From: a virus
IMG/VR virus record: IMGVR_UViG_3300021963_000034
Location: 32,001 to 96,000 of that record
Direction: 5' to 3' (one strand)
Length of the DNA stretch: 64,000 nucleotides
Each line of letters starts with the position of its first letter. Position 1 is the first letter of the stretch. The notes under the pieces were generated by a model, which was not told the DNA's origin, did not search any database, and was given only the letters and a program-made list of their open reading frames with translations. The translations under genes and the position numbers were made by a program. Shown here piece after piece: positions 7,690-32,574 of this stretch.

Positions 7690-8016
7690 ATGGGAAAGCA
7701 TTATCTACTTAACTTGTATGGATGCTCGTTTGTCCTTTTGGACGACGAGCGTTGTCTTATAGACTTACTAGAAAACGCAGCAGTAGCAAGTGGTGCTACT
7801 GTGGTTCAAACTATCTCAAAAAAGTTTGAACCACAGGGAGTTACTGTTATTTGTTTATTGTCTGAAAGTCATATTAGTATTCATACTTGGCCTGAAGAAG
7901 GTAAGGCAGCAGTGGACGTTTATACCTGTGGTGATTGTAATCCAAAGATTGGGTGTGATATGATTATCGAACAACTCTTTGCACAGAACCATACATTAAG
8001 TTATATTGAACGGTAA
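7690..8016 (+). CDS. speD: S-adenosylmethionine decarboxylase proenzyme
   Basis: FEPQGVT..LSESHISIHTWPE..AAVDVYTCG, with pyruvoyl E-S cleavage site. Confidence 0.95.
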   Translation: MGKHYLLNLYGCSFVLLDDERCLIDLLENAAVASGATVVQTISKKFEPQGVTVICLLSESHISIHTWPEEGKAAVDVYTCGDCNPKIGCDMIIEQLFAQNHTLSYIER

Positions 8017-8064
8017 CAAAAGTTACAAAAGTACTTGTATAGATAATGTAACTAGAGGTATAAT
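8013..8064 (+). promoter_or_regulatory. NtcA-type box plus sigma70-like promoter
   Basis: GTA-ACAAAAGT-TAC (8013-8026); TTGTAT(8035)-18 nt-TATAAT(8059). Confidence 0.6.
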
Positions 8065-8073
8065 AATCCTCTA

Positions 8074-8377
8074 CCGTTCATCCTATGACTAAAGCACTCT
8101 TGCTTTTAGCATGGGTTCCTTTCCTCTTTGTTTCAGCGCCACAAGCATCTAGCATCCAACAGGTTGCAGTTTCTTGTGACACCGCGATGGAACTAATGGA
8201 CATCGTTAAAAACGGCGATGTAGTATCACAAAAGACAGAGGACCGATTGTTATTAGAACTCCGAAAGGATTTTATAGTAAAGTGCTAAAACCTAATAGGA
8301 CGGAAGTAAGCCGACGCGGAACGGATCGTTCATTCGCTATTCGCAAATAGCGAACGCAAACGCCGACTGAAGGAACG
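8074..8377 (+). ncRNA. Tandem glutamine riboswitch aptamers (glnA / Downstream-peptide class)
   Basis: Aptamer 1: CCGTTCA-TCCTAT...ATAGGA-CGGAAGTAAGCCGACGCGGAACGG. Aptamer 2: ATCGTTCA-TTCGCTATT-cgca-AATAGCGAA-CGCAAACGCCGACTGAAGGAACGC. Upstream of a YRGVxY peptide gene. Confidence 0.8.
8085..8288 (+). CDS. Small protein with signal-peptide-like N-terminus, nested in the aptamer P2 loop
   Basis: MTKALLLLAWVPFLFVSAPQA hydrophobic leader; two Cys. Confidence 0.65.
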   Translation: MTKALLLLAWVPFLFVSAPQASSIQQVAVSCDTAMELMDIVKNGDVVSQKTEDRLLLELRKDFIVKC

Positions 8378-8408
8378 CTCTTTAACCTAAAAAACTAAGG
8401 AGAACCCA

Positions 8409-8546
8409 ATGTCTAGAGTAGTATATCGTGGTGTTGAGTATGACACCCAAAAGCGTCTTGAGTATCAACAACAAATGATGCAGCAACCCCAACAATACAA
8501 CGAAACCTATCGTGGTGTTAAGTTTGTAAAGGAGGGGCATAAATGA
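8409..8546 (+). CDS. DUF4278-family peptide
   Basis: MSRVVYRGVEY...TYRGVKF; AAGGAG RBS; follows the riboswitch. Confidence 0.85.
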   Translation: MSRVVYRGVEYDTQKRLEYQQQMMQQPQQYNETYRGVKFVKEGHK

Positions 8547-8644: not shown

Positions 8645-8683
8645 AGAGAGGGACTTGACTCCCTCTCTTTTTTTATGTATAAT
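8645..8683 (+). terminator. Terminator fused with a sigma70 promoter
   Basis: AGAGAGGGA-cttgac-TCCCTCTCT plus T tract; TTGACT(8655)-17 nt-TATAAT(8678). Confidence 0.75.
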
Positions 8684-8706: not shown

Positions 8707-8892
8707 ATGGATCAAGAAAAGCTTAAGCTAATTGTCAGAAACCTTGAATCTCTGGTAGAATGTTTAAAGTCAGAGATTAGTTCTGATGAGGATTCTTTTA
8801 AACCAGAATTACAATATGAGGAAATTAAAAACTTTCTAAATGATTACGACGAAGTATTTTATGACGAGGAAGATGAATACAATGTTCGATGA
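8707..8892 (+). CDS. Hypothetical acidic protein
   Basis: MDQEKLKLIVRNLESLVECLKSEI; GAGG RBS. Confidence 0.7.
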   Translation: MDQEKLKLIVRNLESLVECLKSEISSDEDSFKPELQYEEIKNFLNDYDEVFYDEEDEYNVR

Positions 8893-9592
8893 TTTTGAAT
8901 TTATGAAACCAGAAGTAAAACTAATTAGTGTTACTCCTGACGCAGAAAAGCATATGGCATATTGTGCTCGCGTAAGTAACCCTGCAAATCAGGAGAATGA
9001 AAAGTTCTCTGGACTACTCAAGTATTGTATTCAACATCAGCACTGGAGCATCTTTGAGCAAGCAAGTATGACTGTAGAAATTAATACTACAAGAGGTATC
9101 GCAGCTCAGATTTTACGTCATAGGTCATTTACATATCAAGAATTTTCGCAACGATATGCTGATGCTAATCTTCTGAATAATACTATTCCTCTTCCTGAAC
9201 TTCGTCGTCAGGATACAAAGAATCGTCAGAATAGTATCGATGATATTCCGGACTATCTGCGTCTAACTTTGACAGAAGATGTCCGCGTCCATTTTGAGAG
9301 TGCTCTACGCCTCTACAACCGCCTTCTGGAGAAAGGAGTGGCAAAGGAGTGTGCAAGGTTTGTACTGCCCTTAGCAACGCCTACAAGACTCTATATGACC
9401 GGTTCTGTAAGGTCATGGATCCATTATATTGATCTTCGTTCTGCACATGGTACACAGAAAGAACATATGGAGATTGCAGAACTTGTTCGCTGTATCTTTA
9501 CCTGCCAGTTCCCTGCGGTATCTGAAGCACTTGGTTGGACTCGTGAGGGATGTGTAGAATGTGTTGATCCACCTTCAGTCACTATTGAATAA
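8882..9592 (+). CDS. thyX: Flavin-dependent thymidylate synthase
   Basis: HWSIFEQ, RHRSFTYQEFSQRY ThyX motif. Confidence 0.97.
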   Translation: MFDDFEFMKPEVKLISVTPDAEKHMAYCARVSNPANQENEKFSGLLKYCIQHQHWSIFEQASMTVEINTTRGIAAQILRHRSFTYQEFSQRYADANLLNNTIPLPELRRQDTKNRQNSIDDIPDYLRLTLTEDVRVHFESALRLYNRLLEKGVAKECARFVLPLATPTRLYMTGSVRSWIHYIDLRSAHGTQKEHMEIAELVRCIFTCQFPAVSEALGWTREGCVECVDPPSVTIE

Positions 9593-9877: not shown

Positions 9878-10630
9878 ATGGCAAGAAGAAGAAAAGAAGA
9901 CCAACCAATTGGTGTTGGGATGACTGCTAAGCAGATGAAGCGTAAAAAACCAATCAATCTAGATTTAATTAGAGAGATTGAACCACTAACAGATAATCAA
10001 AAACTTTTATATCAAGCATACGAAAAGGGACAAAATATCGTTGCATATGGATGCGCAGGAACAGGTAAGACATTCATCACGCTTTATAACGCTCTTCAAG
10101 ACGTACTTGATGAAAGATCTCCTTACGAAAAGATTTATATCGTTAGGTCTCTTGTTGCTACCCGTGAAATTGGTTTTCTTCCTGGTGATCATGAAGACAA
10201 GTCATCACTTTATCAAATTCCCTATAAGAATATGGTGAAGTATATGTTTCAGATGCCAGATGATGCGTCGTTTGAAATGCTTTATGGAAATCTAAAACTT
10301 CAAGGAACAATTAGTTTTTGGTCTACTTCCTTTATTCGTGGAACTACTCTGGATAATGCAATCATCATTGTCGATGAATTTCAAAACTTGAATTTTCATG
10401 AACTTGATAGTATCATTACTCGTGTAGGTGAAAATAGTAAGATTATGTTCTGTGGAGATGCTACTCAAAGCGATCTTATTAAAACGAACGAAAAGAATGG
10501 AATTATCGATTTTATGAAAGTTCTTCGCGTGATGCCTTCAATTGATATTATTGAATTTGGAGTTGATGATATCGTCCGCTCTGGATTTGTGAAGGAATAT
10601 ATTCTTGCTAAAATGGAAGTCGGTGTATGA
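9878..10630 (+). CDS. phoH: PhoH-like ATPase
   Basis: GCAGTGKT, EIGFLPG, RGTTLDNAIIIVDEFQN, GDATQSD. Confidence 0.96.
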   Translation: MARRRKEDQPIGVGMTAKQMKRKKPINLDLIREIEPLTDNQKLLYQAYEKGQNIVAYGCAGTGKTFITLYNALQDVLDERSPYEKIYIVRSLVATREIGFLPGDHEDKSSLYQIPYKNMVKYMFQMPDDASFEMLYGNLKLQGTISFWSTSFIRGTTLDNAIIIVDEFQNLNFHELDSIITRVGENSKIMFCGDATQSDLIKTNEKNGIIDFMKVLRVMPSIDIIEFGVDDIVRSGFVKEYILAKMEVGV

Positions 10631-31518: not shown

Positions 31519-31800
31519 GCGAGTATGGTGGAATCGGTAGACACACCAGACTTATGAAAATTGAGCCTCATTTAGGAAACTTTATGAGTGTAATTCCTCA
31601 AATTCGGTGAAACCTGTAAAATGGCAATACCGAGCCAAGCATCGCAAGATGAAGGTGTAGAGACTAGACGGGGAACACCTAAACCAAAAGGTATGGTGAA
31701 GGTATAGTCCAGACCACAAACCGAAAGGGTAGTGAAAACTATAGTGGTACGAAAATCTGTTGGGCGTATGCCCGTGGGAGTTCAAGTCTCCCTACTCGCA
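31519..31800 (+). tRNA. trnL: tRNA-Leu(UAA) interrupted by a group I intron; exons 31519-31553 and 31752-31800
   Basis: Acceptor GCGAGTA/TACTCGC; spliced anticodon arm CAGA-CTTAAAA-TCTG; variable arm GGGC-gtat-GCCC; T-loop TTCAAGT; no encoded CCA. Confidence 0.93.
31554..31751 (+). mobile_element. Group I (IC3-type) intron, 198 nt, no internal ORF
   Basis: Inserted at U^AA; P1 CTT/GAG with U.G; P AATTCGGTGAAA, Q AATACCGAGC, R GTAGAGACTAGA, S GGTATAGTCC; terminal G. Confidence 0.92.
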
Positions 31801-32154: not shown

Positions 32155-32511
32155 ATGAAAACCTGTACTAAATGTGGACTATCCAAATCACTAACAGAAT
32201 TTCACTCTGCTGGTATAATAGATGGTAAAAAATATCTTCGTGGTGAATGCAAAGTTTGTCAGAAGAAAGTTGTAAAAGCAAGGACAAAATCTATTAAAGA
32301 AGATTATGTTTCTTGGAAAAAAACTTTGAAGTGTACCAGGTGTGGGTTTTCTGATTATCGTGCCCTCCAATTTCATCATATTGATGAAAAAGAGCATACT
32401 ATTGCAAATATGTTCCGTGGTGGATTTTCTCTAGAAAGTATAAAAAAAGAAGCAAAAAAGTGTGAAGTTCTTTGCGCCAACTGCCACCAAATACACCATT
32501 CGCCCCTATAG
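32155..32511 (+). CDS. HNH endonuclease overlapping tRNA-Thr
   Basis: CTKC..ECKVC; CTRCG..ALQFHH..KCEVLCANCHQIHH. Confidence 0.88.
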   Translation: MKTCTKCGLSKSLTEFHSAGIIDGKKYLRGECKVCQKKVVKARTKSIKEDYVSWKKTLKCTRCGFSDYRALQFHHIDEKEHTIANMFRGGFSLESIKKEAKKCEVLCANCHQIHHSPL

Positions 32512-32574
32512 CATAACGGTTACTGCATCCGCCTTGTAAGCGGAAGATTTTCGGTTCGATTCCGAATGGGGGCT
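32502..32574 (+). tRNA. trnT: tRNA-Thr(UGU)
   Basis: Acceptor GCCCCTA/TGGGGGC; anticodon arm TCCGC-CTTGTAA-GCGGA; T-arm TTCGG-TTCGATT-CCGAA. Confidence 0.88.

Follow-up and report, generated by a model that had tools for sequence, protein, structure and literature searches.

A gene nested in the P2 loop of a predicted interlocked double glutamine sensor in a T4-like cyanophage

Riboswitch aptamers are usually regarded as compact, non-coding elements. Group I and group II introns carry homing endonuclease or maturase genes in their peripheral loops, and in leaders of the trp and ermC type the position of the ribosome on an upstream ORF sets the fold of the RNA and the expression of the next gene. 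For the glutamine class, it has been described that binding of the ligand forms a long-range G-C pair, and this was proposed to free the ribosome-binding site of gifB, making the element an ON switch (Klahn et al. 2018, PMC6212724). A structure of the type-1 glutamine riboswitch is due to Ren et al. (2015), as cited in PMC6212724, and marine hosts have been reported to use the type-2 aptamer (PMC6212724). A set of 157 glutamine doublets and four triplets was interpreted as pseudo-cooperative tandems (Sherlock et al. 2022, PMC9481103). A survey that counted only two glutamine aptamers in cyanophage genomes came to the conclusion that riboswitches are rarely used by phages (McCown et al. 2017, PMC5473149).

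The locus described here shares with the type-1 leader of Synechocystis gifB (IF17; RF01739) the CGUUC/GAACG P1, a P2 hairpin right after CGUUCA, the ACGGAAGUA and GAAG strands, P3 and a long-range G-C linchpin. Like that leader, it also has a proposed anti-Shine-Dalgarno (anti-SD) sequence that starts at the linchpin C and is followed by a small DUF4278-like gene. Unlike the RF01739 type, it has a P2 that encloses a 67-codon gene with the AUG in the stem and a P3 loop that accommodates another core in circularly permuted form, and it scores below the gathering threshold, and then only for the inner and 3' part. This type-1-like sensor is found in phages whose marine hosts reportedly use the type-2 aptamer (PMC6212724). 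The tandems of PMC9481103 and of Weinberg et al. (2010, PMC2864571) likewise have two cores per leader and are common in marine sequence; those, however, are treated as consecutive units, whereas here covariation places one core within the P3 loop of the other, with P3 common to both. A coding sequence inside the aptamer is not mentioned in PMC9481103 or PMC2864571. Neither an aptamer-internal coding sequence nor an interlocked fold was found in a literature search that covered, among others, PMC6212724, PMC9481103, PMC2864571 and PMC5473149; an earlier sequence-only reading of this DNA likewise knew of no characterised case of a gene nested in this way. We regard the element as belonging to a known class of riboswitch but as new in its architecture, and among the glutamine doublets published as "tandems" there may be others with cores interlocked in the same way.

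As with intron ORFs, a complete ORF occupies a hairpin loop of a functional RNA, at a site that tolerates insertion and in modules that are apparently mobile. Intron hosts are ribozymes, whereas the host RNA here is a predicted ligand sensor; the nested protein, in contrast to intron ORF products, has no nuclease or maturase domain (no match in Pfam or NCBIfam); and, unlike in introns, the start codon belongs to the closing stem. As in trp and ermC leaders, the position of the ribosome on the upstream ORF would decide the fold, but in those leaders the peptide is a sensor, whereas in the present locus the product of the upstream ORF is a conserved protein and the competing fold is a predicted metabolite-binding aptamer. 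A role of the nested ORF as a leader-peptide sensor was considered and rejected, since conservation was seen in the protein itself and not in any stalling motif.

The window, that is, the whole stretch of 64,000 nucleotides analysed, derives from a T4-like cyanomyovirus, and the element lies in it between speD (7690-8016) and thyX (8840-9592), with phoH at 9878-10630. It is probably the leader of a small cyanophage operon transcribed from about 8071 (Table 1), a start position that we infer from the putative promoter. At the equivalent place the cultured phage S-PM2 has TTGACT-17-TATAAT, and a stricter promoter scan of the window returned only a weaker overlapping site (8040-8067). Upstream, the palindrome GTAACAAAAGTTAC is a perfect NtcA-box-like site 55 nt 5' of the sensor. 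Of 116 unique related loci, 92 have the same pattern, GTA-N8-TAC, in the 120 nt upstream, where 0.035 would be expected from the background, and it mostly stands 51-55 nt ahead of CGTTCA. The box is a candidate for NtcA binding and suggests that transcription is tied to the nitrogen status of the host.

The 45-aa protein encoded after the sensor contains two YRG motifs and matches phrog_5049 with an E-value of 4e-10; its match to Pfam PF14105 (E 0.0032, 18.2 bits) is below the cut-off of 25.3. It is possibly an IF17-like peptide. The 32-aa ORF that follows gave no family in Pfam, PHROGs or NCBIfam. In three related loci (L036, L037 and L038) a small ORF (MNTLNLIRKQ.. or MALILIKQK..) stands directly after the sensor in place of the DUF4278 gene, and its start resembles that of the 32-aa ORF of the window.

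Table 1. Predicted features of the leader and the small operon, in coordinates of the window
Feature	Position	Strand	Basis or remark
NtcA-box-like palindrome GTA-N8-TAC	8013..8026	+	read from sequence; overlaps speD stop codon
Putative sigma-70-type promoter TTGTAT-18 nt-TATAAT	8035..8064	+	read from sequence
Outer P1 5' strand CGUUC	8075..8079	+	pairs with 8373-8377; RNAalifold, linchpin and P3 covariation
P2a 5' strand UCCUAU	8081..8086	+	six pairs with 8295-8300; includes the first two bases (AU) of the nested gene's AUG
Nested gene, 67 aa	8085..8288	+	ORF list; ATG 8085, TAA 8286-88
P2a 3' strand AUAGGA	8295..8300	+	pairs with 8081-8086; covariation
Outer junction CGGAAGUA	8301..8308	+	linchpin G8303, E-loop strand AGUA 8305-08
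P3 5' strand	8309..8316	+	pairs with 8361-8368, two internal mismatches; covariation
Inner P1 hairpin GAACG-GAU-CGUUC	8319..8331	+	RNAalifold; G8324 is the inner linchpin partner
P2b, 8 bp (8333-40/8347-54), 6-nt loop	8333..8354	+	read from sequence; covaries
Inner junction CGCAAA	8355..8360	+	C8357 pairs with G8324
P3 3' strand	8361..8368	+	covariation with 8309-8316
E-loop strand GAAG (8369-72) and outer P1 3' strand GAACG (8373-77)	8369..8377	+	RF01739 consensus GAAGGAACG
Linchpin C8378 and anti-SD CUCUUUA	8378..8384	+	pairs with UAAGGAG 8396-8402
Shine-Dalgarno region UAAGGAG of the DUF4278-like gene	8396..8402	+	read from sequence
Downstream gene, 45 aa, DUF4278-like (YRG repeats)	8409..8546	+	Pfam PF14105, phrog_5049
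ORF, 32 aa	8543..8641	+	overlaps stop codon of the DUF4278-like gene (ATGA)
Intrinsic terminator, closes the small operon	8645..8676	+	9-bp stem, T-run

A scan of the window at Rfam gathering thresholds gave no glutamine riboswitch match. When RF01739 was applied permissively, only 8325-8381 was recovered (33.1 bits, E 3e-5, against a gathering score of 35) and the 208-nt insert was left unbridged; a purpose-built covariance model, R1, reached 74.7 bits over 8281-8380, again leaving the 208-nt insert to the true 5' strands unbridged. Standard scans miss the sensor because the gene sits inside it. Elsewhere in the window, the same gathering scan detected a PhotoRC-II RNA (23-117, 79 bits), a group I intron (31544-31733, 63 bits) and a tRNA (32502-32574, 65 bits).

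The outer core consists of P1 (8075-79/8373-77), P2a, the E-loop formed by CGGAAGUA and GAAG, P3 (8309-16/8361-68) and the G8303-C8378 linchpin. The inner core is made up of the hairpin 8319-31, P2b (8333-54), CGCAA (8355-59) and the C8357-G8324 linchpin. The outer junction, CGGAAGTA at 8301-08 directly after ATAGGA (8295-8300), matches the RF01739 consensus aCGGAAGUA, and so do the conserved E-loop strands ACGGAAGUA (8300-08) and GAAG (8369-72) that flank P3. Within the CG[X]AAGUA of the first core, the partner of X is the base that follows the 3'-most GGAACG. This linchpin covaried in 117/117 units among the matches listed (C-G in 70, G-C in 47, exceptions 0). Covariation was also observed along P3, with UA 9, GC 8 and AU 3 in columns 41-86 and AU 24, GU 4 and GC 3 in columns 34-94; the lengths of its strands, the segment after AAGUA and the segment before GAAGG, covary too. 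The cores are interlocked because the linchpin of the first pairs past the 3'-most P1 strand and the covarying P3 encloses the second. These comparative sequence data indicated that the element is one interlocked double glnA-type sensor, with a second, circularly permuted core inside the P3 loop, and L-glutamine is its predicted ligand from the features of the glnA-type core.

The nested gene nearly fills the 208-nt loop of P2a (8087-8294), its TAA ending 6 nt 5' of ATAGGA, and no purine-rich Shine-Dalgarno (SD) stretch precedes its ATG in the window sequence. The sequence-only reading had noticed this lack of an SD and had proposed that aptamer folding and translation of the nested ORF exclude each other; with the start codon in the P2a stem, P2 formation and initiation of the nested gene are indeed incompatible. 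The pair probability of P2a in the secondary-structure ensemble is about 0.35-0.46; at about 0.4, around a loop of 208 nt, the stem is marginally stable and therefore poised to respond. At the other end of the leader, the anti-SD helix (8378-84/8396-8402), whose first base is C8378, has a pair probability of 0.93-0.95. Of 89 unique platforms, however, only 36 have a predicted anti-SD that adjoins the linchpin.

To initiate at 8085, a ribosome would need the first ~30 nt single-stranded, which are the 5' strands of outer P1 and P2a, and a ribosome terminating at 8286-88 would cover most of the P2a 3' strand. With such footprints on the P2a and P1 strands, the nested gene could not be translated while the outer core is folded, nor could the outer core fold during translation. 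Glutamine would stabilise the outer core and bury the nested AUG, and the folded outer core would pull C8378 from the anti-SD helix, allowing translation of the DUF4278-like gene. At low glutamine, the 5' end would be open, the nested protein would be made and the downstream SD would stay masked, while ribosomes on the nested gene would themselves block the sensor fold. Since the outer core is wired to the expression platform, the nested and the DUF4278-like genes would respond reciprocally to glutamine, a plausible form of the off/on logic proposed in the sequence-only reading. Both the ribosome footprints and the direction of nested-gene control are what we infer from the layout. The nested AUG is transcribed ~210 nt before its P2a pairing partner; as it emerges so early, the first ribosome may load every time, which may leave control weak or entirely kinetic. 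On balance, we consider it rather probable that the element is a P2a-enclosing double sensor with a nested gene, in which nested translation and outer-core folding exclude each other and give two reciprocal outputs. Should the sensor fold and the ribosomes compete in a functional way, this would be a new route to two opposite outputs from one ligand sensor and would link phage gene expression to host nitrogen status alongside the NtcA-like box.

The distribution of the nested gene was analysed in relatives, which were collected by scanning IMG/VR with the 16-mer that joins the two cores (at least 120 loci). Among the matches listed, there were 110 unique units, with no gene in 37, a gene in the second P2 in 41, in the first P2 in 21 and in both in 11, so that 66% carry a gene in one P2 or the other or in both. 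The lengths of the units in these listed matches are strictly bimodal, 38-62 versus 216-255 nt, and the layout recurs much too regularly for chance. The long coding loops and the P2 covariation that the sequence-only reading had pointed to as a check in relatives were both found: every one of the 92 long loops among the matches listed holds one ORF, of 49-69 codons, and the long-form P2 stems covary (UCCUAU/AUAGGA, UCUUAUG/CAUAAGA, UCCAAU/AUUGGA and UCCGAUG/CAUUGGA, with further compensatory forms UCUAU/AUAGA, UCUUAU/AUAAGA, UCUCAU/AUGGGA and UCCUCA/UGAGGA). The P2b hairpin, which in other phages encloses a gene for 49-69 aa, occurs in 57 long forms with ORFs among the matches listed. In the alignment of 32 short units, all five pairs of the short-form P2a change on both sides, and P2b covaries as well.

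A search that used protein similarity only led back to the same RNA context. In 75 of the 78 whole loci found in this way, the gene is flanked by CGTTCA, no more than 14 nt ahead of the ATG, and by an ACGSAAGTA core downstream. The association between nested gene and sensor is tight, not absolute. Three loci (L130, L131 and L133, around 985-1300) have kept the nested gene and lost the 3' half of the sensor together with the DUF4278-like gene; their 5' strand is mutated (CAGTTCATCCTATG) and the gene runs into a terminator and the next promoter. Because one third of the units are geneless and these three loci are without the sensor 3' half, neither gene nor sensor strictly needs the other. Two further loci (L144 and L145, about 1190-1260) carry the nested gene in the P2 of a canonical glutamine aptamer that stands alone, its P3 being a simple hairpin without an inner core.

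These exceptions bear on a different explanation, according to which the gene is a passenger that sits in a tolerant P2 loop and borrows the promoter, the sensor folds after the ribosomes have gone and no coupling has been selected. The 37 units without a gene and the three loci that retain the gene after loss of the sensor 3' half speak for it. So does the placement of one protein subfamily in the first P2 in L111 and in the second P2 in L103 and L117, from which it follows that a module of P2 plus gene moves between cores, presumably by recombination at the common CGUUCA and ACGCAA flanks. The unit of the window is letter-identical to the short unit of L026 outside P2a, which also suggests recent modular exchange and fits a passenger.

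A passenger, however, would be free to start anywhere in a loop of 200 nt, yet in 91 of the 92 long loops among the matches listed the ATG starts 3-7 nt into the 5' strand of P2 (15 nt in the other). This placement holds across subfamilies with different stems, with compensating changes in the 3' strand. Many of the genes, moreover, run through the P2 3' strand: in several subfamilies the reading frame crosses it and enters the conserved core, where its stop codon is either the UAA within AAGUAA (tail IGRK) or the UGA within CUGAAGG (tail DAKAD), and the changes in these tails track the RNA covariation. Translation of frames that end inside the conserved core must unfold the sensor, and physical competition exists even where it was not selected. 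We therefore regard a mere passenger as a rather unlikely account and prefer the reading in which nested translation and outer-core folding compete.

As a separate observation on the exchange of modules, when the gene occupies the second P2, the first P2 is often a UUCGCUAUU..AAUAGCGAA hairpin (L015, L019, L024, L049, L061, L062, L080 and L103). This hairpin is normally the short second P2, and its placement suggests that entire P2 modules swap between the two cores.

The sequence-only reading had taken the leader for two adjacent independent aptamers, the positions of whose strands it had given exactly (CCGTTC 8074-79, GAACGG 8319-24, TCCTAT 8081-86, ATAGGA 8295-8300, ATG 8085), and it had correctly attributed to the second core an ordinary short P2, of 8 bp with a 6-nt loop. 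Such an arrangement, with aptamers at 8074-8324 and 8325-8381 acting as a pseudo-cooperative tandem, is now very unlikely, as covariation of the linchpin and of P3 shows that the cores are interlocked. It draws on the four identical P1 strands, which make the pairing possible, on the minimum free energy structure, which uses CCGUUC/GAACGG, and on the Rfam score of 33.1 bits for 8325-8381 alone. The P1 proposed earlier (8074-79/8319-24) is thus a possible pairing, and the one preferred by the nearest-neighbour model (probability 0.35 versus 0.06), but covariation assigns its 5' strand to GAACG at 8373-77.

This assignment is indirect because P1 never varies: its strands are invariant in 32/32 aligned relatives, so that covariation of P1 itself supports neither partner. 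RNAalifold, when run on the 32 short units, predicted outer P1 and the inner P1 hairpin unaided. The linchpin is paired in 32/32 rows of the nested model (CG 21, GC 11), whereas the linchpins expected for side-by-side aptamers are paired in 21/32 rows each and fail in 11/32 each, and in 62 of 113 unique units among the matches listed. Among the same matches, the nested model fits 108/113 unique units and the side-by-side model 51/113. In L135, L157 and L159, a C in the loop of inner P1 together with an inner CGGAA makes a compensatory swap that fits the nested model only. Side-by-side aptamers would also leave the first core without the GAAG strand and the second without the GUA strand of the E-loop, and the covarying P3 links both halves. 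In L011, where P2 is short, it is the outer arrangement that reaches the higher score with the Rfam model itself (43.6 bits, the inner core being placed as an insert of 38 nt in the P3 loop). The nested secondary structure lies ~8.6 kcal/mol above the free ensemble in the nearest-neighbour model, a difference that tertiary contacts and ligand would need to make up; the side-by-side P1 fold may be an alternative, ligand-free conformer.

A reading slightly less probable again takes translation as an activator: ribosomes that finish the nested gene would open the downstream structure and, by translational coupling, switch the DUF4278-like gene on, so that both products would rise together. It gains from members in which the stop codons, of the P2b and IGRK types, lie inside the sensor core; P2b-type stops precede the outer P1 3' strand by 5 nt and the anti-SD by ~10 nt, and a ribosome terminating there would unmask the SD. 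The stop of the window, however, at 8286-88, lies 90 nt upstream of the anti-SD, and across this gap a terminating ribosome cannot reach it, which suits this reading to other members better than to the window. For the window, the competition between nested translation and outer-core folding remains the preferred reading.

The coding nature of the insert was assessed on 58 distinct DNA variants of the window-type ORF, which are 198-210 nt long and all multiples of 3. No stop or frameshift was found in any of these 58 variants, and the median dN/dS was 0.27. These values indicated that the nested ORF, which the sequence-only reading had read as a 67-codon frame in the P2 loop of a glnA-type core, is a real gene under purifying selection. 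The protein has a hydrophobic, signal-peptide-like N-terminus, followed by Cys31, two helices and Cys67, and M1, C31, L55 and C67 are its invariant residues. Both cysteines are invariant across subfamilies that are otherwise only 15-20% identical, and a profile comparison with hhalign joined the two main groups Cys to Cys (probability 59%, E 9.5e-5). That the 208-nt insert might be a non-coding structured domain with an accidental ORF, as the somewhat better folding of the whole leader than of shuffled sequences (z -2.5) could suggest, is close to refuted by the uninterrupted variants with indels all in multiples of 3, the dN/dS, the two invariant cysteines and the alignment of subfamilies Cys to Cys.

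The AF2 model of the nested protein places helices at 31-43 and 49-64, with a modest pLDDT of 69.5. Residues 1-23 of the window protein resemble a signal peptide, with K3, a hydrophobic stretch at 5-16 and APQA. This N-terminus occurs only in the window subfamily, the hydrophobic N-termini of the other subfamilies being much shorter, and it is the basis on which the sequence-only reading took the protein to be a putative exported peptide. No informative match was obtained in Pfam, NCBIfam, PDB sequences or the ESM Atlas, and three nested-protein subfamilies are listed in PHROGs as "unknown function". The nested-protein profile, on the other hand, matched 1077 unnamed protein clusters in public data (E<=1e-3), so that about a thousand orphan small-protein clusters become one family tied to nitrogen sensing.

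More specifically, but only tentatively and with more doubt than for the competition as such, the locus may be a two-output device that makes a two-cysteine protein at low host glutamine and an IF17-like inhibitor of glutamine synthetase at high glutamine, with ribosome traffic feeding back on sensing. If the two-output reading is true, this would be the first natural riboswitch in which a translated gene lies within the aptamer and gates it.

Among T4-like cyanophages the sensor is common, and it extends to the laboratory models P-HM1 and P-HM2 and probably P-SSM4. The cultured relatives S-PM2 and S-CREM1 have the same sensor unit with a short first P2, and DSL-LC02 has a 50-codon ORF inside the second P2. 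A tblastn search of cultured phages with the window nested protein gave no match, whereas other subfamilies do match isolates. The IGRK-type nested gene was found in 54 phage records, among them P-HM1, P-HM2, MED4-213, P-RSM4, S-TIM4, P-SSM4 and S-TIM5. In P-SSM4 (L326), a related ORF, PSSM4_169.2, was identified by tblastn in a similar run of small genes. Since laboratory model phages carry nested genes, direct experiments are feasible. In cellular genomes, the scan with the 16-mer gave one real match among those listed, on a 3.7-kb MAG contig, the rest being due to chance.

In P-HM2 (L325, 487-1078), genes occupy both P2 loops (PHM2_179 and PHM2_180) and are followed by the DUF4278-like PHM2_181; the three are annotated as unrelated hypothetical proteins. 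Non-coding expansions were also observed. In L140 (about 1230-1290) the inner P1 hairpin has its loop enlarged by a 36-nt non-coding insert, and in L104 (3763-3884) the second P2 is a 40-nt AT-rich repeat hairpin.
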